From Escherichia coli (GTDB lineage: Bacteria > Pseudomonadota > Gammaproteobacteria > Enterobacterales > Enterobacteriaceae), in NCBI RefSeq assembly GCF_041248615.1, contig NZ_CP158426.1: DNA of 64,000 bases. The stretch is one strand, 5' to 3'. The first letter of the stretch is position 1. Every line of letters begins with the position of its first letter. The position numbers were made by a program, and so were the translations under genes. The notes beneath the pieces were generated by a model. The model was not told the DNA's origin. It did not search any database and saw nothing but the letters and a program-made list of their open reading frames with translations. This document shows positions 7,893 to 64,000 of the stretch, piece by piece.

Positions 7893-9716
7893 TTAATCGT
7901 CTTTCGGTGCGCGGTTGGCGCGACGACGATCGTTTTCCGTCAGGTGACGTTTACGAATACGGATAGAGGTCGGAGTCACTTCTACCAGTTCGTCATCATC
8001 GATGAACTCCAGAGCTTGTTCCAGAGTCATGCGGATAGGCGGAACCAGAACAACGGCTTCGTCAGTACCGGAAGCACGCATGTTGGTCAGTTTCTTACCG
8101 GTCAGGCAGTTTACAGTCAGGTCGTTAGAGCGGCTATGAATACCGATAATCTGACCTTCGTAAACTTCTGCACCGTGACCGAGGAACAGCTTACCGCGAT
8201 CCTGCAGACCGAACAGCGCGAACGCTACCGCTTTACCCTGACCGTTAGAGATCAGTACGCCGTTCTGACGCTGACCCACTTCACCCGGACGTACGTCGTC
8301 GTAGTGGCTGAAGGTGGAGTACAGCAGACCCGTACCAGAAGTCATGGTCATGAACTCAGAACGGAAGCCAATCAGACCACGGCTTGGGATCACGTAGTCG
8401 AGACGTACGCGGCCTTTACCGTCTGGATTCATGTTTTTCAGGTCGCCTTTACGTTCGCCCAGCGCCTGCATCACAGAACCCTGATGCTGTTCTTCAACGT
8501 CCAGCGTCACGTTTTCATACGGCTCTTGTTTACGACCGTCGATTTCACGGAAGATTACTTTCGGACGGGATACCGCCAGTTCGAAACCTTCACGACGCAT
8601 GTTTTCGATAAGAACAGACAGGTGCAGTTCGCCACGACCAGAAACGCGGAACGCATCGGCGTCTTCGGTTTCTTCTACGCGCAGCGCAACGTTGTGTACC
8701 AGTTCTTTGTTCAGACGATCCAGGATCTGACGAGACGTTACGAACTTACCTTCTTTACCGCAGAACGGCGAGGTGTTAACGCAAAAGAACATAGAAACGG
8801 TCGGCTCATCAACGGAGAGTGCCGGCAGCGCTTCAACGTTTTGCGTGTCGCAAACGGTGTCAGAAATGTTCAGTTCGCCCAGGCCCGTGATCGCCACGAT
8901 ATCGCCAGCTTCCGCCAGATCGGTTTCAATACGTTCCAGACCGAGGTGGCCCAGCACTTTACCGACTTTCGCGTTACGGGTTTTGCCTTCGCTATCGATG
9001 ATAGTGACCTGCTGGTTCGGCTTCACTTTACCGCGCTTGATGCGGCCAATGCCGATAACGCCAACATAGCTGTTGTAATCGAGCTGAGAAATCTGCATCT
9101 GGAACGGACCGTCAAGGTCAACGTCCGGCGCAGGAACGTGGTCAACAATCGCCTGATACAGCGGGGTCATGTCTTCCGCCATATCTTCGTGGTCCAGACC
9201 CGCGATACCGTTCAGCGCAGAAGCGTAAACGATCGGGAAGTCCAGCTGCTCGTCGGTCGCGTCGAGGTTAACGAACAGATCGAATACCTGATCCACAACC
9301 CAATCAGGACGCGCGCCAGGGCGGTCAACTTTGTTGATAACAACAATCGGCTTCAGGCCGTAAGCAAACGCTTTTTTGGTTACGAAGCGCGTTTGCGGCA
9401 TCGGGCCGTCAAATGCGTCAACCACCAGCAGCACTGAGTCTACCATGGACATTACACGTTCAACTTCACCACCGAAGTCGGCGTGCCCCGGGGTATCAAC
9501 GATGTTGATACGGTAATCATTCCATTTGATAGCGGTGTTTTTCGCGAGGATGGTAATCCCACGCTCTTTCTCCAAATCGTTGGAGTCCATCACGCGCTCT
9601 TGGGTTTCGGCACGAGAGTCGAACGTACCGGATTGTTGGAGCAGCTTGTCTACCAGGGTGGTTTTACCATGGTCTACGTGCGCGATGATGGCGATATTAC
9701 GCAATTTTTCGATCAC
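7893..9716 (-). CDS. typA: ribosome-associated translational GTPase BipA/TypA
   Basis: 607-aa ORF; GTPase motifs AHVDHGKTT and DTPGH; EF-G-like architecture. Confidence 0.95.
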
Positions 9717-44180: not shown

Positions 44181-45493
<1,313 letters not shown>

Positions 45494-45534
45494 CCTGCAC
45501 TCCATATGACAACCGCCCTGACGGGCGGTTGAAT

Positions 45535-46311
45535 TTATTCTTCAGTTTTTTCGCTTTCTGCTTCAGCGTCGTTTTCTTCTTCCCGGTTTCGACCCTTACC
45601 AACGTAAAAGCGTGAGAAGAAGACACCGATTTCAAACAGGCAGTACATCGGGATCGCCAGCAGCGTTTGCGAGAAGACATCCGGCGGCGTCAGCAGCATC
45701 CCGACAACAAATGCGCCAACCAGCACATACGGACGTTTTTTGCGTAAGTCTTCTGGCGAGGTAATTCCCATCCAGCACAGCAGCACAATTGCCACCGGCA
45801 CTTCAAAGGAGACACCAAACGCCATAAACAGCGCCATAACGAAGCTTAAATAGCTGGCGATGTCGGTGGATACCTGTACCCCTTCCGGCGCGGTATTGGC
45901 AAGGAAGCCAAATGCCAGCGGAAAGACCACAAAGTAGGCGAACGCCATGCCGATATAAAACAACAGAGAGCTGGAAACCAGCAGCGGCACCACCAGGCGA
46001 CGTTCATGCTTATACAGCGCTGGGGCGATAAACGCCCACACCTGATAGAGAATCACCGGCGCTGACAGAATCAGCGACACCATAAAGGTCAGCTTGATCG
46101 GCGTAAAGAACGGCGAGGCCACGTCGGTGGCGATCATCGTTGAACCTTGCGGCAACTGCTTGATCAATGGCGCGGATACCAGGTGATAGATGTCATTGGC
46201 GAAATAGACCAGACACAGGAATATCACGATCACCGCGATAATGCAGTTCAGCAGACGCTTACGCAGCTCAATCAGATGCGTGATAAGCGGTTGAGTATCT
46301 TCTACAGACAT
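45535..46311 (-). CDS. tatC: twin-arginine translocase subunit TatC
   Basis: 258-aa multi-TM ORF. Confidence 0.95.
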
Positions 46312-46313
46312 GT

Positions 46314-46829
46314 TTACGGTTTATCACTCGACGAAGGGGAAGGTGCAGCGGTTTTCGGTTCAGCGTCCGCAGCAGGTTTTACCACCGGCTCTGGCGTGGT
46401 TTCTGGCTTCTGTTCCGGCGAACTGGCCTGCGTTTGTGCAGCAGCAGGCGTTACGCCTTCATGCGCAGCTTCATTGTCTTTCACCACCGGGTTGTGGATG
46501 GTGTGCGCTTCATCGCTCGCCTTTTCAGGATCGTTTGCAACGTAGGAACGCTTCATCGACTCCGCGGCCTGGCGTAGTTCATCCATCGACGCTTTCAGTT
46601 CGGGCGTCAGGTTAGTGAGGCTCGCCTTTTCAACCTTTTTCAGACTGTCCTGAAACTCCTGGAGTTTTAACTCCTGGGTCAGTTCGTTCTGCACCGTTGT
46701 CGCCAGTGAACGCAACGCGCGAATCCAGCCCGCGACCGTTTTTACCGCCACAGGCAGTCGTTGCGGCCCCAGAACAACGAGGCCGATGATGAACACCAAT
46801 AGCAGTTCGCTAAAACCGATATCAAACAC
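46314..46829 (-). CDS. tatB: twin-arginine translocase subunit TatB
   Basis: 171-aa ORF starting [26 protein letters not shown]. Confidence 0.95.
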
Positions 46830-46832
46830 GGA

Positions 46833-47102
46833 TTACACCTGCTCTTTATCGTGGCGCTTCGCGTCTTCTGTTTTAGCCTGTTCCTGATTCGTATCCGCCT
46901 GCTTATCGGCGATAGTTTTCGCAGTAAAATCAGCATCCTGACTGGTTTTATCCTGCTTTGGTTCATCATCGCTCATTGCTTTTTTAAAGCCTTTGATCGA
47001 CGCACCAAGATCGGAACCGATGGAGCCGAGCTTTTTGGTGCCAAAAAGCAGTACAACGATGACGGCAATAATCAATAACTGCCAAATACTGATACCACCC
47101 AT
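46833..47102 (-). CDS. tatA: twin-arginine translocase subunit TatA
   Basis: ORF track 46833..47144; ATG (cat 47100-47102) gives [27 protein letters not shown]; 89 aa. Confidence 0.93.
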
Positions 47103-47180
47103 ACATGTTCCTCTGTGGTAGATGATGATTAAACAAGGCCGCATTATACGTTACACGGCCCGCCTTGAGCGATGAAAAAA

Positions 47181-49423
<2,243 letters not shown>

Positions 49424-49436
49424 TTCCGGTCTCCTG

Positions 49437-50192
49437 TCAGAACTTATAACCACGATGCAGCGCCACAACCCCTGCCGTCAGATTGTAGTAGTCGACACTT
49501 TCGAATCCGGCATCCTGCATCATGGCTTTCAGGGTATCCTGATCGGGATGCATACGGATGGATTCTGCCAGATAACGGTAGCTGTCGGCGTCGTTCGCGA
49601 CCAATGAGCCAATACGCGGCAGCACATGGAAGGAGTATGCATCATAGGCTTTGCTCAGCGGCTCGATAATTGGCTTCGAGAACTCAAGCACCAGCAGGCG
49701 GCCGCCGGGTTTCAGCACGCGATACATTGAACGCAGTGCTTTATCTTTGTCGGTGACGTTACGCAGACCAAACGAAATAGTGATGCAATCAAAGGTGTTA
49801 TCCGGGAACGGCAGCGCCTCAGCGTTCGCCTGAACATACTCAACGTTGCCAATCACACCGATATTACGCAGCTTCTCGCGGCCCATTTTGAGCATGGATT
49901 CATTGATATCAGCAAGGACCACTTTGCCAGTTTCTCCGACCAGGCGGGAGAATTTCGCTGTCAGGTCGCCGGTGCCACCAGCCAGATCCAGCACGGTCTG
50001 CCCACGGCGTACGCCGCTGCAATCAATCGTGAATCGCTTCCACAAACGATGAATACCAAATGACATCAAATCATTCATGACATCGTATTTTGATGCCACG
50101 GAATGGAAAACGTGGGCGACCATATCCGCTTTTTGTTCCTTCGCGACGGTCTGAAAACCAAAGTGCGTCGTTTCTTGTGACTTATCCACCAT
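49437..50192 (-). CDS. ubiE: ubiquinone/menaquinone C-methyltransferase UbiE
   Basis: 251-aa ORF; SAM-binding LDLAGGTGD. Confidence 0.95.
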
Positions 50193-50286
50193 CTCAATGC
50201 CTGCTCATCAAAAAATTGTTCCAGAAGTGTAACAGATTGGGCGTCGATGCCCTAGATTTCTACCCGGCTTAACTACCCCCAATGGG

Positions 50287-51714
50287 CTAGCGCGACTGCT
50301 GATTATATTCATCATCGCGTTGATAAGCTTCATCATTCGGCTGCTCCGGAACCGACCGCAGTCGATACTCTTCATCCTGGCTCACCGCTTGTTCAGCCAA
50401 ATCCGGATTAATCTCGCGTTTAATTTCTACCCCTAAACCGCGAAACGCTTCTGCCTGCGCCAGCACATTTCCGCGACCTGAAGAGAGTTTTTTCATTGCC
50501 TGGCGATAGTTATCCTGCGCTTTGTCGAGACTTTGACCAATCGCTGACATGTCATCGACGAACAAACGCATCTTGTCGTACAGCTTGCTGGCGCGATCGG
50601 CTATTTTCTGGGCGTTACGACTTTGATGCTCATAGCGCCAGAGGTTGGCGATAGTGCGCAGCGCCACCAGCAGCGTGGTCGGGCTAACCAGCATGATATT
50701 GTTTTTCAACGCTTCGGTGATCAGCTCCGGCTGGCGGTCAAGCGCCAGTAAAAAAGCGGGTTCAACGGGAATAAACATCAGCACGTAATCCAGGGTTCGC
50801 AGCCCCGGCAGCTGTTGATAATCTTTGCGTCCCAGCAAACGGATATGGTTACGCACCGACGCGATATGTTCCTGTAGCGCGCTTTCGCGGGTGTAGTCAT
50901 CTTCGGCGTTGAAATAGCGTTCATAGGCGACCAGCGTCATTTTGGCGTCGATCACCACATCTTTTCCCTGCGGCAACCGCACGATGACATCCGGCTGCAT
51001 CCGCGAGCGGGCGTCATTTTCGATGCTGACCTGGGTTTCATATTCATACCCTTCACGCAGACCGGAAGCCTCCAGCACCCGCGTCAATACTACCTCGCCC
51101 CAGTTGCCCTGGGTTTTATTGTCGCCTTTCAGCGCGCGCGTCAGGTTGATCGCTTCCTGGGCCATTTGCGCGTTGAGCTGCTGGAGATTGCGAATTTCGT
51201 GGGTCAGGGTATGGCGTTCTTGTGCTTCTTTACCAAAGCTGTCCTGAACCTGACGGCGGAAACCGTCCAGTTGTTCACGTAGCGGCGACAACAGGCTGTT
51301 CAGACTCTGACGGTTTTGCTCATCAACCCGGCGATTGCTGTGCTCAAAAATACGGTTGGCGAGGTTTTCAAACTGCTCACTGAGGCGCTGCTCACTGTTA
51401 ATCATCTGGCGAATTTTATCGTCAGCATGTTGCTGTGCGGCTTCCATCCGCGTGGTTACTTCACGCAGATCGGCCTCCAGAGAGGTGTTAATACTTTGCA
51501 GGCTGCGCACTTCGTTATTGAGTAACTCGCACTCAGCGCGCCAGTGCTCGCTTTGGGTAATTTGTTGTTTTGCCGCGCTTAACTCCGCGACCATCTCTTC
51601 ACGTTCAGCTAATTGCTCGGCTTTTTGCTGCGCATGTTGATAACTGGCAAACAGCCAGCCAATTGCCACACCCACCAACGCAATAACTGCGTAAACCATG
51701 ATTGAGAAATCCAC
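50287..51714 (-). CDS. rmuC: DNA recombination protein RmuC
   Basis: 475-aa ORF; N-terminal TM followed by long coiled coil. Confidence 0.9.
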   Translation of the reverse strand: MDFSIMVYAVIALVGVAIGWLFASYQHAQQKAEQLAEREEMVAELSAAKQQITQSEHWRAECELLNNEVRSLQSINTSLEADLREVTTRMEAAQQHADDKIRQMINSEQRLSEQFENLANRIFEHSNRRVDEQNRQSLNSLLSPLREQLDGFRRQVQDSFGKEAQERHTLTHEIRNLQQLNAQMAQEAINLTRALKGDNKTQGNWGEVVLTRVLEASGLREGYEYETQVSIENDARSRMQPDVIVRLPQGKDVVIDAKMTLVAYERYFNAEDDYTRESALQEHIASVRNHIRLLGRKDYQQLPGLRTLDYVLMFIPVEPAFLLALDRQPELITEALKNNIMLVSPTTLLVALRTIANLWRYEHQSRNAQKIADRASKLYDKMRLFVDDMSAIGQSLDKAQDNYRQAMKKLSSGRGNVLAQAEAFRGLGVEIKREINPDLAEQAVSQDEEYRLRSVPEQPNDEAYQRDDEYNQQSR

Positions 51715-51806
51715 AACGCCTCCTGACGCAACAACTTACCCGCACAAAATAGAATTGTGCTGTACAAACGTCCAGTTGGAAAGGCATTTCCTGCGAGGCG
51801 CTACGC

Positions 51807-51837
51807 AAAAATACAAAAGGCCGAACGCGTCGGCCTT
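51807..51837 (-). terminator. rho-independent terminator downstream of udp
   Basis: hairpin aaggccgaacgcgtcggcctt with a U-run on the minus strand. Confidence 0.65.
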
Positions 51838-51854
51838 CAGACAGGAGAAGAGGA

Positions 51855-52616
51855 TTACAGCAGACGACGCGCCGCTTCCACCACGATTTTCACCGCTTGG
51901 CTTTCAGTTTGTTTCATCGTCTCAGCATTCGGGATCTCTTGCTGGGTGCGGTTAACGATAACACCCGCTACCATACCGGCACGTAGGCCCTGACTTGCAC
52001 ACATGGTCAGCAGGGTTGCAGATTCCATTTCATAGTTCATTACGCCCATCGCCTGCCACTCTTCCATAGAACCTTTAAAGTGACGAACTACGCGACCAGA
52101 GTAAGTATCGTAACGTTCCTGACCTGGGTAGAAGGTATCAGAAGAAGCCGTCACGCCAACGTGAGTCGTCGCGCCGATGGATTTCGCAGCCTCAACCAGC
52201 GCAGTCGTACATTCGAAATCAGCGACAGCCGGGAATTCCAGCGGTGCGAAGTGCAGGCTCGCGCCATCCAGACGAACAGACGCCGTGGTAACCAGGACAT
52301 CACCCACATTAATATGCGGCTGAATAGCGCCCGTTGTACCGATACGCAGGAAGGTGCGAATGCCCAGCTGTGCCAGCTCTTCAACAGCAATAGAGGTAGA
52401 CGGGCCGCCGATACCGGTAGAGCAGACGATAACAGGTTTACCATCCAGCTCTGCACGCCAGGTGGTGAATTCGCGGTGAGATGCCAGCTTAACCGGCTTA
52501 TCCATCAGCGCGGCGATCTTTTCCACACGATCCGGGTCGCCAGGGACGATGGCAAGCGTAGCCCCTTGTAAATCGTTTTTAGTGAGGCCGAGATGAAAAA
52601 CATCAGACTTGGACAT
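51855..52616 (-). CDS. udp: uridine phosphorylase
   Basis: ORF track 51855..52622; ATG (cat 52614-52616) gives [31 protein letters not shown]. Confidence 0.95.
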
Positions 52617-52877
52617 ATACAACTCCTCTGTGAATCGGTTTAGTCAGAAGAAGCAAAAAGACACTTTACCGAAGGGTTTAACATTTTTTCGTGATACTCA
52701 TCACCATGACGCAAATGCGTTGCATAAATTTACCCACCAAAAGTGATGCAAATCACATAAATCACTCTTCATTCTGCAGGACTGCATAAAAGATGAGCCG
52801 ATTCAGGCAATGTGATTTGTTGCATGCTGACTATAGTTAACATTGCGCAACATTTTTATAAGGGTACGGAGAATACC

Positions 52878-53690
52878 ATGGCAACAACACAACAATCTGG
52901 ATTTGCACCTGCTGCATCGCCTCTAGCTTCGACCATCGTTCAGACCCTGGACGACGCGATTGTGGCGGGCTTCACCTCTATCCCTTCACAAGGGGATAAC
53001 ATGCCTGCTTACCATGCCAGACCAAAGCAAAGCGATGGCCCACTGCCAGTGGTCATTGTAGTGCAGGAAATTTTTGGCGTGCATGAACATATCCGCGACA
53101 TTTGTCGCCGTCTGGCGCTGGAGGGGTATCTGGCTATCGCACCTGAACTTTACTTCCGCGAAGGCGATCCGAATGATTTTGCCGATATCCCCACGTTACT
53201 TAGCGGTCTGGTAGCAAAAGTGCCTGACTCGCAGGTGCTGGCCGATCTCGATCATGTCGCCAGTTGGGCTTCCCGCAACGGCGGCGATGTTCATCGTTTA
53301 ATGATCACCGGATTCTGCTGGGGTGGACGTATCACCTGGCTGTATGCTGCGCATAACCCGCAACTGAAAGCGGCGGTGGCATGGTACGGCAAACTGACAG
53401 GCGATAAGTCGCTGAATTCACCGAAACAACCTGTTGATATCGCAACCGATCTTAACGCGCCGGTTCTCGGCTTATATGGTGGTCAGGATAACAGCATTCC
53501 GCAGGAGAGCGTTGAAACCATGCGCCAGGCGCTGCGGGCTGCTAATGCGAAAGCAGAGATTATCGTCTACCCGGATGCCGGGCATGCATTCAACGCCGAT
53601 TATCGCCCGAGCTATCATGCCGAATCTGCGAAAGATGGCTGGCAGCGTATGCTGGAGTGGTTTAAGCAGTATGGTGGGAAGCGGAATTAG
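52878..53690 (+). CDS. ysgA: dienelactone hydrolase family protein (carboxymethylenebutenolidase-like)
   Basis: ORF track 52812..53690; ATG at 52878 gives MATTQQSGFAPAASP. Confidence 0.85.
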   Translation: MATTQQSGFAPAASPLASTIVQTLDDAIVAGFTSIPSQGDNMPAYHARPKQSDGPLPVVIVVQEIFGVHEHIRDICRRLALEGYLAIAPELYFREGDPNDFADIPTLLSGLVAKVPDSQVLADLDHVASWASRNGGDVHRLMITGFCWGGRITWLYAAHNPQLKAAVAWYGKLTGDKSLNSPKQPVDIATDLNAPVLGLYGGQDNSIPQESVETMRQALRAANAKAEIIVYPDAGHAFNADYRPSYHAESAKDGWQRMLEWFKQYGGKRN

Positions 53691-54081
53691 TTTCCTCTTA
53701 GTCTATATTTGAGATGGTGAGTGAACGAGTGCGTTTTGCTGCCATCTCTGTCCCCCAAAAAATAATCAGTATGAATTGATTGGAGAGCACGACTCCGCTA
53801 TTTGACCTTAAGAAAGTCGGCAAGTAATAGTCATAAGTGAGTCTCTTCACTGGCAGACACCTTAGAGATTTACCATCAACTCCCATTCTCAAACAAACAT
53901 TAATTATTATCAACACATTCACATTAATTATAAATTATCTCAGACCTTCCTGATAAAAAGATATTAAAGTGAAACATTTTGTTTTTCACATTTTAGTTCA
54001 TCCCTTTTAGGCGTAAATAAAGGTAAAAAATAACAATACTATTTTTCTTTCACAAAAGAATTAACAAAAGGTTTTTCAAGG

Positions 54082-55215
54082 ATGAGTGATATTATTTACC
54101 TGAACATAACCGGAGAACAACAAGGATGTATTTCCTCTCGTTGTGGAACGAGCGCATCAATAGGTAATCGCTGGCAGATTGGCCATGAAGATGAAATCTT
54201 CGCGTTCTCGCTCTCTAATAGTATTACGAATACAGGCAAAGGGTCACAATTGCATGGCCTTAGTTTCTGTAAATTGATTGACAAAAGCTCCCCGTTACTT
54301 ATTAACGCTATTAACAATAACGAGCAGTTGTTCATGGAGTTTGACTTCTATCGGATCAATAGATTTGGTCGATGGGAGAAATATTACAACATTCAACTTC
54401 GCGGCGCGCTCTTATCAGCAATCAATCACCTGTTTACTGAGAACAATCTGGATACAGAAACCATCACTGTCAGTTATGAATATATACTCTCCAGGCATCT
54501 GATTGCTAATACTGAATTTAGTTATTTGGCATTTCCCGATAACTACAACCGTCTGTTTATACCACGGCCAAAAACTAAAGATGATAATGGCCTCAAAACA
54601 CTCAATAGTAAAGCGGTTGGCAGACTGCTTGCTGCTGGCGGCATATACAATGGGAATATCGAAGGATTCAGGGAAACAGCAAACAAGTTGGGAGGAGATG
54701 CACCTGCTGGTTACGATCAAGTTATGGATAACAAAGGGTTACTCATCGCTGGTGCTTCAATAGTTGCTGGAGTTGTTCTGGGAAGAATGAGATTCCCTGA
54801 TTTGGAATCACTTGAGCATTTCGGAGCCAGAGGAGCAGTATCAGGAAGACCATTTAATCCCGACCTTGCCGGTGGTCCAATTGAAAACCTGACGATAGAT
54901 GGCGTAACAATCAACAGGGAAGGTATCGCTATTGTTGAAAAGCATATCTCCAGATTTGATCATGATCCAGCTAATGATGTAATGATTTCAAGGCTAAAGA
55001 AAATAGCAAATAAAGAATTGCTTCCTGAAAAATACGATCTGAACTACTATACTCATGAATGTCGCGAGTATCAGCGTTATTGTAATTTAGGATGGGAAAC
55101 AGGTGAACCGAAAGGTTTAGATGGATATGAATTATGGAATAATGTACATACTGCAACTCTAGAAGACTTTAAAATTAAAGATACTGACTTATTTCATCCG
55201 GATGCAACAAAATGA
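54082..55215 (+). CDS. Hcp (TssD) domain fused to a C-terminal extension of about 210 aa: putative orphan T6SS Hcp-ET effector
   Basis: ATG at 54082 with AAGGA SD; residues 1 to about 150 match the Hcp family (IYLNITGEQQGCI..SIGNRWQIGHEDEIFAFS..LSFCKLIDKSSPLLINA..FYRIN); Gly/Ala-rich linker with a short hydrophobic stretch (LLIAGASIVAGVVLG), then a domain with no motif I can assign. Confidence 0.8.
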   Translation: MSDIIYLNITGEQQGCISSRCGTSASIGNRWQIGHEDEIFAFSLSNSITNTGKGSQLHGLSFCKLIDKSSPLLINAINNNEQLFMEFDFYRINRFGRWEKYYNIQLRGALLSAINHLFTENNLDTETITVSYEYILSRHLIANTEFSYLAFPDNYNRLFIPRPKTKDDNGLKTLNSKAVGRLLAAGGIYNGNIEGFRETANKLGGDAPAGYDQVMDNKGLLIAGASIVAGVVLGRMRFPDLESLEHFGARGAVSGRPFNPDLAGGPIENLTIDGVTINREGIAIVEKHISRFDHDPANDVMISRLKKIANKELLPEKYDLNYYTHECREYQRYCNLGWETGEPKGLDGYELWNNVHTATLEDFKIKDTDLFHPDATK

Positions 55216-55469
55216 CGATTACGATAGTTGAATTTAACGTGCTGAAAGTTATGGCTGAGAAAGATATTGACTGGAGCTGGATGGTGCTGGATCGTACTTT
55301 AGCTATACGAAATATTCCAGGATTTGGCAACGTAGCGAATATCGTAACAAAGCTGGTTAATCATGGGTTGGTTGATATCGTAAATGGTGAGGGCAACTCT
55401 AGACCACGCTACAGAGTTTCTCAATATGGATTGAATCTTATCAAAGAACAACAAGACAACCTCTTCTGA
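55212..55469 (+). CDS. putative cognate immunity protein, copy 1 (85 aa)
   Basis: ATG at 55212 overlaps the toxin stop (ATGA at 55212-55215), implying translational coupling; paralogous to the next ORF. Confidence 0.6.
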   Translation: MTITIVEFNVLKVMAEKDIDWSWMVLDRTLAIRNIPGFGNVANIVTKLVNHGLVDIVNGEGNSRPRYRVSQYGLNLIKEQQDNLF

Positions 55470-55528
55470 TCCAGCCATTACAGGAGCATGATTTACATTG
55501 TGATCTTTCAATAAGATACTCATCAATT

Positions 55529-55789
55529 TTGGTACAGAATATCGTGATCACTAAAAATGAACTTAACGTGCTGAACGTTATGACTGAGAAAGATATAAAC
55601 TGGAACTGGATGAATCTCGATCGCACACTATCCATAAGGCAAATTCCAGGATTCGGGAATGTTGTTAACATTGTTAACAAATTAGCTAACGAAGGTTTGG
55701 TTATTATTGAGGATAGCGGGAATAAGTCTATGCCTCACTACCACGTTAGTGAAAAGGGATACAATCTCGTGCAACGTGAGAATAAATAA
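55529..55789 (+). CDS. putative immunity protein, copy 2 (paralog, 86 aa as drawn)
   Basis: about 60% identical to copy 1 over ~74 aligned residues (by eye), including IPGFGNV.NIV.KL...GLV; begins on TTG (55529) or GTG (55544), no ATG before the conserved core, no obvious SD. Confidence 0.5.
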   Translation: MVQNIVITKNELNVLNVMTEKDINWNWMNLDRTLSIRQIPGFGNVVNIVNKLANEGLVIIEDSGNKSMPHYHVSEKGYNLVQRENK

Positions 55790-55957
55790 CGTAGCGTTGA
55801 TTACTGAACGGAATCACTCAAAACTGTGTTTTGCGAAAAAAACGATTCGGTTATTTCTGCTCCTGAAGATCAGCTTCAATCTGGCACTCATGCAAAATGG
55901 CTTCCAGTGCTGGAAGCCATTATCGTACTGCAATTTACAGTGACTCGTTAATATTCG

Positions 55958-58219
55958 TCATCCCCGACGCAAATTCTGCGCCGCCTGCACCATGTTCGCC
56001 AGTGCCGCGCGGGTTTCTGGCCAGCCGCGCGTTTTCAGGCCACAGTCCGGGTTGACCCACAGACGCTCTGCCGGAATGCGTTTTGCCGCTTTCTTCAGCA
56101 AGGCTTCAATCCATTCTACGCTCGGTACGTTTGGCGAGTGAATGTCATAGACGCCAGGACCGATTTCATTTGGATAATCAAACTCTTCAAACGACTCCAG
56201 CAACTCCATGTCGGAACGCGAGGTTTCGATGGTGATGACGTCTGCGTCCAGCGCCGCAATCGAATCCATGATGTCGTTGAACTCGCAGTAACACATGTGA
56301 GTGTGGATTTGTGTGTCATCTTTCGCCACGGCGGCGTTGATACGGAAAGCCTCCACGCCCCACTGGAGATAGGCATCCCAGTCGCCGCGACGCAGCGGTA
56401 AACCTTCGCGCAGTGCCGGTTCATCAATCTGGATGATGCCAATTCCAGCGGCTTCCAGGTCCGCCACTTCATCACGCAGCGCCAGCGCAATTTGTTTGGC
56501 GATGGTTTCACGGCTGACATCTTCACGCGGGAACGACCAGCAGAGAATAGTCACCGGGCCGGTCAACATCCCTTTCACCGGTTTATCAGTCAGGGATTGC
56601 GCATACTTCGCCCACTCAACGGTAATCGGTGCCGGGCGGCTAACGTCACCAATAACAATCGGTGGCTTCACGCAGCGTGAACCGTAGCTCTGTACCCAAC
56701 CGTTTTGCGTAAAGACAAAACCGTCGAGGTGCTCGCCAAAGTATTCCACCATGTCATTACGCTCGGCCTCGCCATGTACCAGCACATCCAGTCCCAAACG
56801 TTCCTGCTCAACAATGGCCTGCTTGATATGTTCCGCAATGCCCGTGCGGTAGTTATTGGCGTCGAGATTACCCTTTTTAAAATCCAGACGCAGGGTACGA
56901 ATCTCCGTGGTTTGCGGGAAGGAACCAATCGTGGTGGTCGGCCACGCGGGCAGTTTAAAACGCGCACGCTGGGCTTCAGCACGCACTTCATAGACATTCG
57001 CACGCTGACTGTCCTGGGCGGTGATCGCCGCCAGACGCTTTTCTACTGCCGGATTATGAACACGAGTAGAGTGACGACGCGCCTGAATCGGAGCGCTCCA
57101 CTCTGCCAGAGCAGCCGTGTCACCACTGTTCAGCGCATCGCGCAGCAGTGCCAGTTCATGACATTTTTGCAGGGCGAAGGCAAACCAGCTTTTCACTTCT
57201 GCATCAAGACGCGTTTCCACGCTCAGGTCGATGGGGCTGTGCAGCAGTGAGCAGGAAGATGCCACCCACAAATCGCGTTTGCCGACAATGTCCTTAATTT
57301 GCGCATACTTCTCGGTAAGATCGGCGCGCCAGACGTTACGACCATTGATCAGACCCGCAGACAGCAGCCAGTCAGAAGGCAGACGCTTGTGCAGTTCAGC
57401 AACGTCATCTTTACCATGTACAAGATCGACATGCAGACCCTGAACAGGCAGCGCAGTAATCGTGTCGAGATTTGGCGTTACGCCTTCAAAATAGGTGGTC
57501 AGCAGCAGTTTCACCTGTCCCTGGAGCGCGTCGTAAGCGGGTTTGTATGCGTCCAGCCACGCCTGCGGCAGTTCCAGTACCAGCGCGGGTTCATCAATCT
57601 GTACCCACTCAATGCCGCGTTTTGCCAGTTCTGCCAGCACTTGCTGATAAATCGGAAGAATGTCGTTCAGCAGGCTCAGGCGATCAAACTGTTCACCTTT
57701 CACTTTACCCAGCCACAGGTAGGTAACCGGCCCCAGCAGCACAGGTTTCACCTTGTGGCCCAGCGCCAGCGCCTCGTCCACTTCGTCCAGCAGCTGCGTC
57801 CAGGTCAGTTTGAACTGTTGGCCTTTAACGAATTCCGGCACCATGTAGTGATAGTTGGTATTAAACCATTTGGTCATTTCCGCTGCCGCCGCAGGTTCGC
57901 CAGTCGGCGCACGTCCACGACCAATACGGAACAGGGTGTCGATATCTACCGAACCATCTTTGTTCTGATGACGCGCCGGAACGTTACCCAGCAGCAGACT
58001 GGTGGTCAGTACATGATCGTACCAGGCAAAATCGCCCACCGGCAGCAGGTCGATACCCGCTTGCTTTTGTTGATCCCAGTGACGAGCACGCAATTCACGC
58101 CCTACCGCCAGCAGTTCTTCACGCGTGGAGTTCCCCGCCCAATAACTCTCTTGCGCTTTTTTCAGCTCGCGACGCAGGCCAACGCGAGGGAAACCGAGGG
58201 TGTGATTAAGAATTGTCAT
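55958..58219 (-). CDS. metE: cobalamin-independent methionine synthase
   Basis: 753-aa ORF starting [29 protein letters not shown]. Confidence 0.97.
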
Positions 58220-58324
58220 TATATGCCCCTTATGGAATTTTTAGTATTTAGCCGTCCAGATGTTTACACATCCATAATTGGCGGTTACTGTATATTCCTC
58301 AAGCGCAAATTATTCATGCCGAAG

Positions 58325-58337
58325 TGAAGGACTTTCA
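58325..58337. promoter_or_regulatory. MetR binding site in the metE/metR divergent region
   Basis: tgaaggactttca matches TGAA-N5-TTCA; overlaps the metR start codon. Confidence 0.55.
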
Positions 58338-59290
58338 TGATCGAAGTAAAACATCTGAAAACGCTACAAGCGTTGCGGAACTGCGGCTCGCTCGCAGCCG
58401 CTGCGGCGACGTTGCATCAGACGCAATCCGCCCTGTCTCACCAGTTTAGCGATCTGGAACAACGCCTTGGCTTCCGGCTATTTGTGCGTAAGAGCCAGCC
58501 GCTTCGCTTTACACCGCAGGGAGAAATCCTGTTGCAACTGGCAAACCAGGTGCTGCCACAAATTAGCCAGGCACTGCAAGCCTGCAATGAACCGCAGCAG
58601 ACGCGTCTGCGCATCGCCATTGAGTGCCATAGCTGTATTCAGTGGCTGACGCCCGCGTTAGAAAATTTCCATAAGAACTGGCCGCAGGTCGAGATGGACT
58701 TTAAATCGGGCGTGACGTTTGACCCGCAGCCTGCGTTGCAACAGGGCGAGCTGGATCTGGTGATGACGTCAGATATTCTGCCGCGCAGTGGCCTGCATTA
58801 TTCGCCGATGTTCGATTATGAAGTGCGTCTGGTGTTGGCACCTGACCATCCGCTGGCGGCAAAAACGCGTATTACACCGGAAGATCTCGCCAGCGAGACG
58901 CTGTTGATTTATCCGGTGCAGCGTAGCCGACTGGATGTCTGGCGGCATTTTCTTCAGCCGGCAGGCGTCAGCCCGTCACTGAAAAGCGTCGATAACACCT
59001 TATTGTTGATTCAGATGGTTGCCGCGCGGATGGGTATTGCCGCCCTGCCGCATTGGGTAGTAGAGAGTTTTGAGCGCCAGGGTCTGGTGGTGACCAAAAC
59101 CCTGGGCGAAGGCTTGTGGAGCCGACTGTACGCCGCCGTGCGCGATGGCGAGCAGCGTCAGCCGATTACTGAAGCGTTTATTCGCTCAGCGCGCAATCAC
59201 GCCTGCGATCATCTGCCGTTTGTGAAGAGCGCGGAGCGACCCACTTACGATGCACCCACAGTGAGGCCAGGATCACCAGCGCGCCTGTAA
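58337..59290 (+). CDS. metR: LysR-family transcriptional activator MetR
   Basis: 317-aa ORF starting [37 protein letters not shown]. Confidence 0.95.
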
Positions 59291-60077
59291 TGAACGTTGG
59301 CCAGTGCGGCTGTTGGTGCCAGATAGCCAGGTTTACCAGCAGCCCTGCCGGAACGTGCATATTATTCATAATACCCAGCGTTCCGGCGTCTACTTGGGTT
59401 GCGCCGTAGTTCCACATAAAGTAGCCAATCCCGGAAGCCACCACGCCAAGAAACACCAGAATGCCCCATTGCAACGTGGTTTGTGGCATTTTCTGCGCAT
59501 TTCCCAGCAAGAACCATGCAATCACCGCCACCAGGAACGCGCCAAGATAGAACCACGCAAAGGCGTTATGCTGCGGCATCGGGCGAGTTTCCATCAGACG
59601 TTTGTAACCCACCATGCCGATGGCAAAAGTGATATTGGAGAGCTGCACCAGCAGCAGGCCAATCCAGAAGTGGTCGGTGACCTGATCATAGCGAATAATC
59701 CCGGCACCAATCACCGCCAACAAGGCGCTAAAAGCATAGCCCCAGCGCAGACGGCGCTTACTCATGATGTCATAAATCAACGTAATGTAGAGCGGCGTCA
59801 GTACGGTGAACAGCAACAATTCGGAGACCGTCAGGTAGAGATAGGCGCGAAAACTCAGCATATACATCACGCCGAGCTGCATCGCGCCCACCAGCATATA
59901 CAGGCCGACCGTTTTCAGGCTATTGCCACGGGTACGCAGAAACGGCAGAAAAACGAGTGCCGCCAGGCCAACGCGCACCAGCACCGCAAAATAGCTATCG
60001 ACGTGCCCCGCAAGGTACTCGCCATAAAAGCTAAAGGAGAAGGCCCACAGAATCGTGGTGATGATAAGTAGCGCCAC
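59178..60077 (-). CDS. yigM: EamA/DMT-family transporter (biotin uptake, BioP)
   Basis: 299-aa multi-TM ORF; 3' end overlaps the metR 3' end by 113 bp on the opposite strand. Confidence 0.85.
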
Positions 60078-60152
60078 AATGGAAAACTCTTTGATTAACG
60101 AGTATCCATTGTAGCGAAGTATCAGGTTGACAACTGGCCAAATAAAGAACGA

Positions 60153-60953
60153 TTACGATAAATAGAGCTTACGCAGATAATGCGGCACCGCGTCGTCGGC
60201 ATTAGTACCAATCACTTCCAGCTCCGGATGCAGATCTTTCAGACGCTGGTGCGCACTGCCCATAATGCAGCCTTTCCCCGCCATCGACAGCATTTCGGCG
60301 TCGTTCATCCCGTCACCAAACGCAATACAATCCTTCAGGCTGTAGCCCAGTTTCTTCGCCACTGCTTCCAACGCATGGCCTTTCGACACGCCGCCCGCCA
60401 TCACTTCCAGACAGGTTAAGGTAGAGAAACTGACGTTGACGCGATCGCCCCAGCGAGCGTTAATCGCCTGCTCCAGCGGCAGCAGTTGTTCATGGGAATC
60501 GCAGGTGAAGAACACTTTGCTGACGCCTTCCGGCTCCAGTAATCCAGGCTCATACAGCGCATATTTGAACACCGCTTCTTTAAAAAAGCGCATCTCTTCC
60601 GGGCGATGGCGATTCATAAACCATTCGTCGTCGCGATAAACGTTAGTAATGATGTCCGGATTGTCGTTGACTACGCCAAACAGATCGCTGGCAATGTCGC
60701 GATCCAGGTTATGAGCAAAAATCAGATTGCCATCCAGATCGTGAACGCGCGCGCCATTGGAGGTAATCATGTAAGACTTAATCTCCAGATTATCGCGAAT
60801 TTGCCCCACATCAACGTGGTGACGACCGGTCGCAAACACAAAGTTGATGCCGCGCGCGGTGAGCAGCTTCAGAGTTTCTTTGGCGTAAGGGGATAACGTA
60901 TGGTCGGGAGAAAGTAACGTGCCATCTAAATCAGACGCAACAACCTGGTACAT
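60153..60953 (-). CDS. yigL: HAD-family (Cof-like) sugar phosphatase YigL
   Basis: ORF track 60153..61079; ATG (cat 60951-60953) gives MYQVVASDLDGTLL; 266 aa. Confidence 0.88.
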   Translation of the reverse strand: MYQVVASDLDGTLLSPDHTLSPYAKETLKLLTARGINFVFATGRHHVDVGQIRDNLEIKSYMITSNGARVHDLDGNLIFAHNLDRDIASDLFGVVNDNPDIITNVYRDDEWFMNRHRPEEMRFFKEAVFKYALYEPGLLEPEGVSKVFFTCDSHEQLLPLEQAINARWGDRVNVSFSTLTCLEVMAGGVSKGHALEAVAKKLGYSLKDCIAFGDGMNDAEMLSMAGKGCIMGSAHQRLKDLHPELEVIGTNADDAVPHYLRKLYLS

Positions 60954-60960
60954 AAGAAAT

Positions 60961-61983
60961 TTAAACCTCTGTAGAGCGGTTTCCGCTGGGTGAGTTATGC
61001 CTGTTGAAAAAATCAACGATGGCGTGGAGCGCGACTGAGCGCATTGCGTCCTTTTCAAAAAGGATCTCATGGTACGCACCTTTAATTACCAACGGCCGTC
61101 CTCCTTCGACAGGATGGCCCGCAGCGGTGCGGAGTTCACAAAAACGGTCATGCATGCGGTTATCCACCACGCGTTCCTCTTCAGCTTGTAAGAGAAGCGT
61201 TGGCGTGGTGTCATCACCCGCACCGGCTAACACCTGTTCGCCAGCCAGAATACTTTCGCGTACCCAATGGTAGGTCGGCCCACCGACGCGAATCGTTGGG
61301 TCATCAGCATAAAAGCGTAAGTTACGTCGATATCGCTGTCTGCTGTGGGTCAGTACGTTGATAGCAAACGGCAACGCGCGCCAGCGCCCGGTGCCTATTG
61401 CATAGCCATCACGGAAACGTGGATGCGCTTCGGCCCAGTTGAGGATCTGCCGTGCCATAAATGACGGCATACGAATCACGATCCCAAACATTGGCGCAGT
61501 TAGCGCAATGGCGTCACATACACCTGGATGGCGTTGCAGAAATAATGTGGAGATCGCACCGCCCATCGAATGTGCCAGTATATAACGTTTACGCCACGGA
61601 CCGGGCTGAACTTCCTGTTGCCAGAATGCCGCCAGATCATCAACATAATCATTAAAGCGATTAACATGCCCGAGATGCGGATCGGCTAACAGGCGACCGG
61701 AACGTCCCTGCCCGCGATGGTCGATGATTAAGACATCAAACCCCAAATGGAACAGGTCGTAGGCCAGTTCCGCATATTTTACGTAGCTCTCAATACGCCC
61801 CGGGCAGATGACTACCACCCGGTCATGGTGCTGTGCGCGAAAACGGACAAAGCGCACCGGAATGTCATCCACACCAGTAAACTCTGCTTCATCTCGCTGA
61901 CGCCAGAAATCAGTCAGCGATCCCATGGTAAAAGCAGCAAACGCGTTTTCTCTTGTTTCCCAGTCTTTTTGCTGCTGAAACAT
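60961..61983 (-). CDS. pldB: lysophospholipase L2
   Basis: 340-aa ORF; alpha/beta hydrolase with HSMGG nucleophile elbow. Confidence 0.93.
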   Translation of the reverse strand: MFQQQKDWETRENAFAAFTMGSLTDFWRQRDEAEFTGVDDIPVRFVRFRAQHHDRVVVICPGRIESYVKYAELAYDLFHLGFDVLIIDHRGQGRSGRLLADPHLGHVNRFNDYVDDLAAFWQQEVQPGPWRKRYILAHSMGGAISTLFLQRHPGVCDAIALTAPMFGIVIRMPSFMARQILNWAEAHPRFRDGYAIGTGRWRALPFAINVLTHSRQRYRRNLRFYADDPTIRVGGPTYHWVRESILAGEQVLAGAGDDTTPTLLLQAEEERVVDNRMHDRFCELRTAAGHPVEGGRPLVIKGAYHEILFEKDAMRSVALHAIVDFFNRHNSPSGNRSTEV

Positions 61984-62093
61984 CGGGTAATCTGCCTCTT
62001 AAACCACGTAAAATCGTTTTTTTAAGCGTGCCTGACACAACGCTGCGACAGTAGCGTATTGTGGCACAAAAATAGACACACCGGGAGTTCATC

Positions 62094-62714
62094 ATGACCT
62101 TAGAATGGTGGTTTGCCTACCTGCTGACATCGATCATTTTAAGCCTGTCGCCAGGCTCTGGCGCAATCAACACCATGACCACCTCGCTCAACCATGGTTA
62201 TCGCGGCGCGGTGGCGTCTATTGCTGGGCTTCAGACCGGACTGGCGATTCATATTGTGCTGGTTGGCGTGGGTTTAGGGACGCTATTTTCCCGCTCAGTG
62301 ATTGCGTTTGAAGTGTTGAAGTGGGCGGGCGCAGCTTATCTGATTTGGCTTGGGATTCAGCAGTGGCGCGCCGCTGGCGCAATTGATCTTAAATCGCTGG
62401 CCTCTACTCAATCGCGTCGACATTTGTTCCAGCGCGCAGTTTTTGTGAATCTCACCAATCCCAAAAGTATTGTGTTTCTGGCGGCGCTATTTCCGCAATT
62501 CATCATGCCGCAACAGCCGCAGCTGATGCAGTATATCGTGCTCGGCGTCACGACTATTGTGGTCGATATTATTGTGATGATCGGTTACGCCACCCTTGCT
62601 CAACGGATTGCTCTATGGATTAAAGGACCAAAGCAGATGAAGGCGCTGAATAAGATTTTCGGCTCGTTGTTTATGCTGGTGGGAGCGCTGTTAGCATCGG
62701 CGAGGCATGCGTGA
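62094..62714 (+). CDS. rhtB: homoserine/homoserine lactone efflux protein (LysE family)
   Basis: 206-aa ORF starting [27 protein letters not shown]. Confidence 0.93.
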
Positions 62715-62722
62715 AAAATAAT

Positions 62723-62752
62723 GTCGGATGCGGCGTAAACGCCTTATCCGAC
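62723..62752. repeat. REP unit between rhtB and rhtC
   Basis: gtcggatgcggcgtaaacgccttatccgac. Confidence 0.7.
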
Positions 62753-62775
62753 TTACTCTGATGACGCGTCTGGCA

Positions 62776-63396
62776 TCAACGCGAAATAATCAAATGAATG
62801 CCAAATCCGGCAAATAACGCCCCGGCAAAACCATCAATCCACTTCGCCAGACGTTGATAACCACGGCGCATTTGCGGCAGGGCAAACAGGCTGGCAACGA
62901 CGGTAAACCACGCCAGTGTTTCGATAATAATCAACGCGAAAATGCCCCAGCGCTCAGTGGTGCCGACGTTATCGCCGACAAACAGCGAGAATACCGAACC
63001 AAAGTAGATAATCGCTTTCGGATTGGCGAGATTGGTCAGTAAGCCTTTCAGGAAACTGCGTCCGCTTTTTGCCAGTTCTACCTGTGGCGCAGGCGCAGAA
63101 ACGACCTCTTTTTTCAGTGCGCTACGCAGCATCTGATAACCCATCCAGCAGAGATACAGGCCACCGCCCACCATAATCAGTGTATGCAGCCAGGCCATTT
63201 TTTCGATAATCAAATGCAGGCCAAGCAACGCAATCCCAGCCCAAACCATTACGCCGCAGGTAATGCCCAGCACGCCCATCATCGCTTCTTTACGGGAACG
63301 ACTGACAGCGGTCTGAGAGACAAAAAAGAAATCGGGACCGGGGCTCATAAGCGCCACAATGTGCACCATGGCGACGGTGAGGAATAACATCAACAT
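62776..63396 (-). CDS. rhtC: threonine efflux protein (LysE family)
   Basis: 206-aa ORF starting MLMLFLTVAMVHIVALMSPGPDFFFV. Confidence 0.93.
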   Translation of the reverse strand: MLMLFLTVAMVHIVALMSPGPDFFFVSQTAVSRSRKEAMMGVLGITCGVMVWAGIALLGLHLIIEKMAWLHTLIMVGGGLYLCWMGYQMLRSALKKEVVSAPAPQVELAKSGRSFLKGLLTNLANPKAIIYFGSVFSLFVGDNVGTTERWGIFALIIIETLAWFTVVASLFALPQMRRGYQRLAKWIDGFAGALFAGFGIHLIISR

Positions 63397-63459
63397 ACAT
63401 TAGACTCGCGGGGGAAACGTTTACGGAGTCTTCATCCTGGCACTTTTTTATCCTGCTGA

Positions 63460-64000
63460 CTACTCTTCGTCATCGCCATCAACATGTGCACGAATCAGCG
63501 CCATAAACGGTTTGCCAAAGCGTTCCAGCTTGCGCATCCCAACGCCGTTAACGCTGAGCATTTCGCTGGCAGTGATCGGCATCTGTTCCGCCATCTCAAT
63601 CAAGGTTGCGTCGTTAAACACCACGTACGGCGGGACATTGCTTTCATCGGCAATCGATTTACGCAGTTTGCGTAATTTGGCGAACAGTTTGCGATCGTAG
63701 TTGCCGCCGAAGGATTTCTGCATCGCTTTCGGTTTGAGCGCCACGATACGTGGCACGGCAAGTTGCAAAGAGGATTCGCCGCGCAGCACCGGACGCGCAG
63801 CCTCTGTCAGTTGTAGGGCAGAATGCTGGGCAATATTTTGCGTCACCAGGCCGAGGTGAATCAGCTGGCGGATCACGCTCACCCAATGTTCATGGCTTTT
63901 ATCACGGCCCATGCCATAGACTTTCAGTTTGTCATGACCATAGTCGCGGATACGCTGGTTATTAGCGCCACGAATCACTTCCACCACATAACCCATCCCA
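63460..64000 (-). CDS. recQ: ATP-dependent DNA helicase RecQ, C-terminal part (5' end beyond window)
   Basis: ORF open to the window edge; C-terminal HRDC-like region ending ...RAHVDGDDEE. Confidence 0.88.
   Translation of the reverse strand, partial: GMGYVVEVIRGANNQRIRDYGHDKLKVYGMGRDKSHEHWVSVIRQLIHLGLVTQNIAQHSALQLTEAARPVLRGESSLQLAVPRIVALKPKAMQKSFGGNYDRKLFAKLRKLRKSIADESNVPPYVVFNDATLIEMAEQMPITASEMLSVNGVGMRKLERFGKPFMALIRAHVDGDDEE

Follow-up and report, generated by a model that had tools for sequence, protein, structure and literature searches.

A probable orphan Hcp toxin–immunity module between ysgA and metE of Escherichia coli

Gene content and boundaries of the ysgA–metE segment

The DNA analysed here is a 64,000-nt stretch of Escherichia coli contig NZ_CP158426.1 (GCF_041248615.1), hereafter the window, and our subject is an AT-rich segment of about 2.3 kb that lies in it between the core genes ysgA and metE. 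Bounded by ysgA on the plus strand and metE on the minus strand, with udp and metR farther out, the segment holds three plus-strand open reading frames (ORFs), which we call hcp-ET, immA and immB (coordinates in Table 1). The first encodes a fusion of an Hcp (TssD) carrier with a C-terminal toxin extension, and the other two encode small candidate immunity proteins. Sequence comparison makes it likely that the segment is an orphan effector–immunity module of the Hcp-ET class, sited outside any type VI secretion system (T6SS) cluster.

The GC content of positions 53691-55957 is 0.385, against 0.512 elsewhere in the window. Windows of the same size (2,267 bp) outside the segment have a mean of 0.510 (sd 0.034, n=573) and a minimum of 0.418, which makes this the lowest-GC 2.3-kb stretch of the whole window. 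An earlier reading made without database searches (the sequence-only reading) had described an AT-rich accessory insert with three co-directional genes, placed where ysgA and metE converge across only a few tens of base pairs in K-12. The GC profile and the ORF list bear out the composition and the gene content; in K-12 the two stop codons are indeed separated by 39 bp, which hold a hairpin; and the segment is accessory rather than core, since K-12 and about 84% of complete E. coli genomes lack it.

Alignment to K-12, a check that the same reading had proposed, gave exact junctions: homology stops at 53681 and restarts at 55962 (BLAST), so that 55 bp of K-12 are exchanged for 2,280 bp (53682-55961) in the window. 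The final three codons of ysgA (53682-53690) are changed, giving a C-terminus of KRN* in place of the KKSL* of K-12, and the last codon and stop of metE are GGA TGA rather than GGG TAA. The site of insertion had been correctly named, but the 3' ends of the two genes are not intact, as both junctions cut into the final codons. Because both break points lie inside coding sequence, the segment is best described as an allelic replacement at a hotspot rather than a clean insertion. The ysgA 3' ends come in three forms, KKSL* in K-12, KRN* in the window and …GVKK* in CFT073 (L001 1983-1994; L005 5990-6001). All of them diverge in the final three to five codons, so each state of the hotspot breaks at the same few bases.

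The junctions had also been described as free of tRNA genes, integrases, insertion sequences (IS) and flanking repeats, and the searches agree. There is no tRNA gene in 45000-64000 of the window, no integrase or IS ORF in the ORF list of the segment, and the direct and inverted repeats flanking the junctions amount to chance-size matches only. Judged by these searches, the tRNA target, integrase and flanking direct repeats of a classical integrative genomic island are absent.

The leader upstream of hcp-ET contains an exact 11-nt direct repeat, ACATTAATTAT, at 53897-53907 and 53921-53931 (24 bp apart), which may be a regulator binding site. This repeat sits just inside 53889, the point at which similarity to the B2 module starts. 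Weak sigma-70-like matches are found on the plus strand of the leader at 53739-53766 and 53802-53831, and promoter-like matches over the whole segment are commoner than in shuffled sequence (15 versus 6.6 ± 2.8). H-NS silencing of this AT-rich leader is plausible on general grounds and is named here as a candidate only. An antisense ORF of 74 aa in the leader (53698-53922, minus strand) has nothing to support it, and AT-rich sequence probably produced it by chance. At the other end, another terminator-like hairpin, borne by the island, stands behind metE (55896-55921) in place of the K-12 one; it falls below the T-run criterion of the terminator scan. The metE 3' flank from 55854 onwards is also present in L003, which has a truncated tkt1 island and no Hcp module (BLAST).

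Other low-GC stretches of the window, at 3.7-7.2 kb and 21-24 kb, match in position the K-12-type core genes yihL-N, yihF/G and dsbA, as inferred from gene order and ORFs.

Table 1 Features of the ysgA–metE segment and its flanks, in window coordinates
Feature	Coordinates	Strand	Description
ysgA	52878..53690	+	Dienelactone hydrolase family; left core flank; 813 nt in the RefSeq annotation of a 100% identical locus
Left junction segment	53682..53888		207 bp; present in the window and in allele-B strain MS1685 (L011), not in K-12 or the B2/tkt1-island version (BLAST)
Leader	53691..54081	+	GC 0.33; upstream of hcp-ET; presumed promoter region
hcp-ET	54082..55215	+	377 aa, intact; Hcp (TssD) with C-terminal toxin extension; RefSeq names the identical protein tssD
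Hcp carrier domain	54082..54591	+	Residues 1-170
Linker	54592..54789	+	Residues 171-236; conserved, glycine-zipper-like helix
Putative exchangeable cassette	54938..55545	+	Toxin tip from codon 286, immA and spacer; from sliding identity against L011
immA	55212..55469	+	85 aa; candidate cognate immunity gene
immB	55544..55789	+	81 aa; putative orphan immunity gene; GTG start per RefSeq (mechanical ORF: TTG at 55529, 86 aa)
Island-type metE 3' flank	55854..55957	-	Perfect hairpin with 12-bp arms at 55896-55921, then TTTTG on the minus strand
metE	55958..58219	-	Right core flank; island-type last codon and stop

Carrier, linker and putative toxin domain of the 377-residue protein

Residues 1-147 of the Hcp-ET protein match TIGR03344 with E=2.8e-36 and 124.9 bits, against a curated cut-off of 58.9, and the Hcp domain is also matched by PF05638 (E=4.8e-14) and by the PDB Hcp structure 6a2v (E=8.5e-15). 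Profile and PDB matches thus identify the Hcp/TssD N-terminus of the Hcp-ET class. The N-terminus of Usp (Hcp-ET3-4) is 67% identical to residues 1-170 and the likeness ends abruptly at …FIP.PK, so that different cargoes use a single Hcp carrier.

The linker that follows contains a hydrophobic small-xxx-small helix, G219-LLIAGASIVAGVVL-G234, with the spacing G219…S226xxxG230xxxG234, and its near-invariant positions are G219, I222, G224, S226 and G234. It matches only two families of PHROGs, phrog_31266 and phrog_14497 (E about 5e-15), both of unknown function, and recurs with non-Hcp N-termini in 348-aa Pantoea proteins and in DUF8093-type proteins. A glycine zipper is needed for translocation of the T6SS DNase Tde1 (PMC10240207), and in nuclease bacteriocins the pyocin_S or inner-membrane translocation (IMT) domain ahead of the killing domain has been linked to nuclease delivery into the cytoplasm (PMC9040868). 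It is from these precedents that we take the proposals, made below, that the linker may assist membrane crossing and that the toxin may be a nuclease.

The toxin domain, residues 236-377, has 462 relatives among representatives of 50%-identity clusters, and is C-terminal in 131 of 137 relatives, on carriers that range from 140 to more than 5,000 residues, among them YD/Rhs-repeat proteins and very long CdiA-like ones. Relatives in the AlphaFold database bear names of PAAR, RHS, 'S-type pyocin', 'pyosin/cloacin translocation domain' and 'colicin/klebicin' proteins. The largest protein cluster, with 1,511 member sequences, represents the full-length 377-aa form. The 210-residue C-terminal extension ends in a homolog of the C-terminal modules of Rhs, PAAR, CdiA-like and bacteriocin proteins.

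Two bacteriocin loci show the domain in the setting of a killing module. On 5,783-bp Klebsiella ColRNAI plasmids (L017) it ends a 780-aa S-type-pyocin-like protein, where it directly follows the …FPPESGLKPLYVM… end of the translocation (pyocin_S/IMT) domain, and downstream of the gene lie a small ORF and genes for bacteriocin immunity and colicin lysis. Beside toxA in Pseudomonas aeruginosa (L018 1812-4204), it forms the C-terminus of a 711-aa pyocin whose N-terminus is pyocin-S2-like, the gene being followed by that of an annotated 85-aa immunity protein. The bacteriocin copies are 44-49% identical and form the extreme C-terminal module. Their immunity proteins, of 85-90 aa, belong to a second family (…KGPNWKEPxFVTxKKYGI) unrelated to immA and immB.

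Eight residues, R256, H288, D319, H325, E326, E329, W352 and H356, are invariant in 59 diverse members of the toxin family, and the window protein retains every one of them. The domain is predicted to be all-helical, with the invariant His-Glu pair modelled within a long helix. Pfam gave no match past residue 135, even at E<=10, and none in the 59 diverse members. An HNH/colicin-DNase fold, suggested by names attached to fragments, was rejected for want of Pfam or NCBIfam support and on account of the all-helical model; so was the name 'colicin-like bacteriocin tRNase domain-containing protein', given by NCBI to a Salmonella plasmid homologue, which likewise has no NCBIfam support. Neither sequence nor fold comparison gave a match to the HNH DNase, colicin E3 rRNase, colicin E5 tRNase or colicin D tRNase domains. 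By analogy with the precedents above, we see an even chance that the toxin is a metal-dependent nuclease relying on the invariant H288, D319, H325, E326, E329 and H356.

A wider proposal, which we hold more tentatively, is that this 140-residue domain represents a further cytotoxic class, found on S-type pyocins, klebicins, Rhs, PAAR, CdiA-like and Hcp proteins, with a fold unlike that of any solved structure, a His/Glu/Asp metal site in a helical bundle, a cytoplasmic target and at least two unrelated families of neutralising immunity protein. The immunity proteins of this toxin family have 81-90 aa; that of pyocin S3, described by Duport et al. in 1995, is reportedly about 153 aa long. Distinctness of the toxin domain was judged against Pfam-defined killing domains, a comparison outside which the pyocin S3 domain falls. 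Pfam contains no model for this 'non-HNH DNase' domain (PMC5536347 S1 Table).

Candidate immunity genes, alleles and distribution

The ATG of immA overlaps the stop codon of the toxin gene (ATGA), and homologous small genes overlap the toxin stop by 4-11 nt in MS1685 (L011), Salmonella, Citrobacter and Pantoea. Together with this synteny in four genera and the joint exchange of toxin tip and immA described below, the overlap indicates that hcp-ET is followed by the downstream immunity gene typical of an Hcp-ET, and immA is the candidate for the cognate immunity gene of the window toxin. Its product is 59-60% identical to that of immB. As judged from sequence, neither protein has a signal peptide, which suggests that the toxin acts in the cytoplasm. 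immA has a weak EarA-like winged-helix match (E=0.21). The NCBI annotation pipeline PGAP calls an immA fragment in strain CFSAN061768 a 'MarR family transcriptional regulator', a label suggestive of a winged-helix fold in the immunity protein.

A second allele of the module, allele B, is represented by strain MS1685, which has the same site and left junction, a 382-aa Hcp-ET and then a single 81-aa immunity gene. From ysgA to about 54937 (codon 286) the window and MS1685 are 97-100% identical; across the toxin tip nucleotide identity falls to 65-78%, and across immB it returns to 93-100%. At the protein level the tips are 67% identical, against 97% for the 108 residues before them. The window has about 330 extra bases relative to MS1685, comprising the toxin end, immA and the spacer, and immA and the spacer have no counterpart in L011. 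The toxin tip and immA therefore appear to be a single exchangeable cassette. The MS1685 immunity protein is 85% identical to immB and 59% to immA; being the ortholog of the sole immunity gene beside the allele-B toxin, immB reads as an orphan immunity gene, cognate to that rival allele. The 74-bp spacer between immA and immB shows no convincing homology to a displaced toxin tip. Between immB and metE, L011 also carries a REP-like element (4680-4740) that is not in the window; matches to it occur in 5,425 of the 5,426 genomes, the median number of places per genome being seven.

These features bear on whether the locus is instead an intracellular toxin–antitoxin or anti-phage (abortive infection) pair, with no secretion and with the Hcp part incidental. 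The layout does resemble a small two-gene toxin and antidote, and a Pantoea relative (L008 1-16867) of 348 aa has a non-Hcp N-terminus and an immA-like gene downstream, in an integrase island that also holds a type I restriction-modification system and a reverse-transcriptase/OLD-family ATPase pair. We nevertheless consider this account very improbable. None of the three proteins matches a PADLOC family at E<=1, the N-terminus of the window protein passes the curated TssD cut-off by a wide margin, the toxin domain occurs overwhelmingly as the C-terminal cargo of secreted polymorphic toxins and bacteriocins, and cassette exchange with an orphan immunity gene is a hallmark of interbacterial toxins.

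The distribution of the Hcp-ET module was surveyed in 5,426 complete E. coli genomes, with positions 53900-55800 as the query. It was matched in 848 of them, chromosomally in every case. The copy is at least 99% identical to the window in about 264 genomes, and 95-99% identical in about 465, the latter being the B2 version found in CFT073, 536, NC101, Nissle and UTI89-type strains; the second allele occurs in about 120-134 genomes. K-12, O157:H7, 55989 and most others have an empty site. B2 strains have a metabolic block of 14 kb (cysteine hydrolase, fdrA, arcC, permease, LysR, MurR, tkt, ptsG, hxlB) between ysgA and the module. Module and block are independent of each other, as genomes have both, either one alone (the block sometimes truncated) or neither.

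In CFT073 the module is 96.3% and the adjacent ysgA region 96.8% identical to the window. Divergence of the module close to that of its core flank argues for long residence with repeated loss or replacement rather than recent import, and the module appears, from these comparisons, to be a long-standing resident of E. coli that has been lost time and again. Homologous recombination in the core genes on either side is its probable means of movement. Salmonella and Citrobacter carry an orthologous module at another core junction, beside ggt, so that it does move on longer timescales. The ggt-linked locus of Citrobacter europaeus (L006/L007 5016-9403) holds a second, 370-aa Hcp-ET with two 84-aa genes and an Imm35-family gene, followed by the orthologue of the window Hcp-ET and one immunity gene; this tandem array reads as a small effector and immunity arsenal.

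Two further observations concern neighbouring accessory DNA. In L1PEag1 (L004 about 7900-8000; the window equivalent is the metE stop at 55958) there is an imperfect copy of the final ~42 nt of ysgA together with a K-12-type hairpin. Copies of this type are found at the metE-proximal end in strains that have the tkt1 metabolic island and lack the Hcp module; the duplication looks like an attachment (att) site and would suggest that the metabolic block integrated site-specifically. Farther away, about 11 kb past the right end of the window, a YPO3983-family gene and a DUF943 gene lie between rarD and corA (L014 34977-36313) in CFT073 and in the proxy genome introduced below, and this two-gene insert is another small accessory islet.

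Proposed working, alternatives and relation to known systems

The window itself contains no T6SS genes. The proxy genome is that of strain 2022N21-074, whose ysgA–metE region is 100% identical to the window and which carries a complete T6SS at aspV with tssA, B, C, E, F, G, J, K and M, DotU, a ClpV-like ATPase, TagH, two Hcp, VgrG and Rhs. If the Hcp-ET reading holds, the fusion protein would be built into the Hcp tube of such a T6SS and fired into neighbouring Enterobacteriaceae, where the glycine-zipper linker may aid passage of the toxin across the inner membrane. The toxin would then act in the cytoplasm of the target, which is proposed because the bacteriocin form of the domain directly follows an inner-membrane-translocation domain. 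The product of immA would shield the producer and its kin, and that of immB would shield against strains with the other allele.

Several observations weigh against this reading. A T6SS that could deliver the protein was observed in the proxy genome alone and not in the window's own genome; identity between the carrier and the pair of Hcp proteins in the aspV cluster is only 38% and 30%; no T6SS was found at metZWV in 2022N21-074, the rest of that genome lying outside the scan; and Hcp-ET1 is reported to depend on T6SS2 (PMC6730261, PMC6099711, bioRxiv 10.1101/2024.03.05.583533). The AlphaFold model of the whole protein is of poor quality in the Hcp part and linker (pLDDT, the per-residue model confidence, 59), and the toxin domain has neither a Pfam family nor a solved relative or informative fold match. 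Some fragments bear the source names 'HNH endonuclease' and 'colicin', and the predicted all-helical fold is no beta-beta-alpha-Me finger. On the side of expression, the promoter scan gave no strong match upstream of hcp-ET, and immB has a GTG start without an obvious strong ribosome-binding site. Finally, the toxin gene is broken in many lineages.

The broken copies take several forms. In CFT073 the toxin gene has an internal stop and the immunity genes are kept; in UTI89 and APEC O1 it is split into ORFs of 229 and 163 aa (also PMC3349570 Table 2); and in CFSAN061768 (L021 4248-5500) an IS1 deletion took away the toxin gene together with the 5' portion of immA and left immB. The 377-aa copy of DEF2 (L002 7160-7175) has Tyr at the invariant His325 (window codon 55054-55056), probably a silent inactivation of the toxin, which argues that H325 is essential. 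IS1 is also found within the module of WP4-S17-ESBL-08 (H1/H41).

Loss of the toxin in many lineages suggests that the current value of the locus may be mainly defensive. Taken to its end, this would make the segment chiefly an immunity island that protects against related toxins of neighbours, with the Hcp-toxin an undeployed relic. The varied inactivation of the toxin in CFT073, UTI89, APEC O1, CFSAN061768 and DEF2 while immunity persists fits such a view, as does the retention of the orphan immB in all allele-A strains examined. We consider it unlikely, given that the 377-aa ORF of the window is intact with every invariant residue, that copies at least 99% identical persist in about 264 genomes and the cluster of the full-length form has 1,511 members, and that the translational coupling of toxin and immA is kept.

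A role against the host, instead of or besides an antibacterial one, would parallel the genotoxin role proposed for Usp, with whose carrier the window carrier shares 67% identity. The module is also common in B2 extraintestinal pathogens, on the tkt1 'pathogenicity island' (PMC3349570). The toxin is disrupted, however, in the model uropathogenic and avian strains CFT073, UTI89 and APEC O1, the dedicated, co-varying immunity genes are taken as a sign of antibacterial action, and the same domain serves as the killing domain of bacteriocins; a host-directed effector therefore seems to us a remote prospect.

The antibacterial Hcp-ET reading would turn three 'hypothetical' ORFs of the tkt1 island into an interpretable interbacterial weapon locus carried by about 16% of sequenced E. 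coli. With two alleles and frequent loss of the toxin while immunity is kept, the locus offers a natural system for studying T6SS effectors and cross-immunity in competition between gut strains. The widespread, unannotated toxin domain (462 clusters at 50% identity) is a target for biochemistry, structural work and possibly bacteriocin engineering. Should the proposal of a further cytotoxic class be right, two incompatible alleles and cross-immunity at ysgA–metE would define competition groups within E. coli. The genomic feature itself falls in known categories and will not surprise specialists.

Both the Hcp-ET class and the variability of the site were already known, and identification of the nature of these three ORFs is the addition made here. 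Effectors of the class act against bacteria and are delivered by the T6SS (Ma et al. 2017, Virulence 8:1189, as relayed in PMC6730261 and PMC6099711), antibacterial activity having been demonstrated for ET1-ET4 (PMC6730261, PMC6099711, bioRxiv 10.1101/2024.03.05.583533); the class has more than 350 members and five named clans: HNH-DNase, Colicin-DNase, DUF2235, Pyocin_S and papain-like peptidase. The window module resembles these in its Hcp N-terminus, C-terminal toxin extension and downstream immunity genes, which are sometimes duplicated, as well as in its position outside T6SS clusters and its Enterobacteriaceae hosts. It differs in that its toxin fits none of the five Pfam-recognisable clans. 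Identity with Hcp-ET1 (HNH-DNase PF01844; STEC004/C227-11/55989) was rejected, as the site is empty in 55989, there is no HNH Pfam match and the model is all-helical.

Usp/Hcp-ET3-4, encoded at aroP-pdhR in UTI89 (593 aa, with three Imu genes), shares with the window the carrier and a multi-gene immunity array. The Usp cargo consists of pyocin_S and an HNH colicin-DNase, whereas that of the window consists of a helical glycine-zipper linker and an unclassified all-helical domain. A relation to the toxin part of Usp was rejected, there being no similarity beyond residue 171 and no Pfam match.

At the same site, a 16-kb tkt1 genomic island was described between metE and ysgA in B2 extraintestinal pathogenic E. 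coli, with no integrase, transposase or repeats and with three metE-proximal ORFs called hypothetical (Li et al. 2012, PMC3349570); the metE-ysgA region has also been listed as GR29 (PMC12928451). The trio in the window corresponds to the tkt1-island ORFs APECO1_2644-2646, with about 96% nucleotide identity to the CFT073 copy, and the 14-kb metabolic part of that island (tkt1, a phosphotransferase system, fdrA, arcC) is absent from the window. The Hcp-toxin and immunity nature of the three ORFs was missed in the publication on the island (PMC3349570).

With nuclease-type bacteriocins (S-type pyocins, klebicins and colicins; PMC5536347, PMC9040868) the module has in common a modular C-terminal killing domain. 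Delivery differs, by Hcp fusion in the window and by receptor-binding and translocation domains in bacteriocins, and immA and immB show no sequence relationship to the immunity proteins that go with bacteriocins. The orphan toxin-tip and immunity arrays of contact-dependent inhibition (CDI), Rhs and pyocin loci, such as the pyocin S1/S2/S6 locus next to toxA (PMC4905994), share the window's pattern of a conserved N-terminal part, a sharp break, a joint swap of tip and immunity gene and retention of immunity to a rival; unlike those arrays, the window has no recognisable 3' fragment of a displaced tip ahead of immB.

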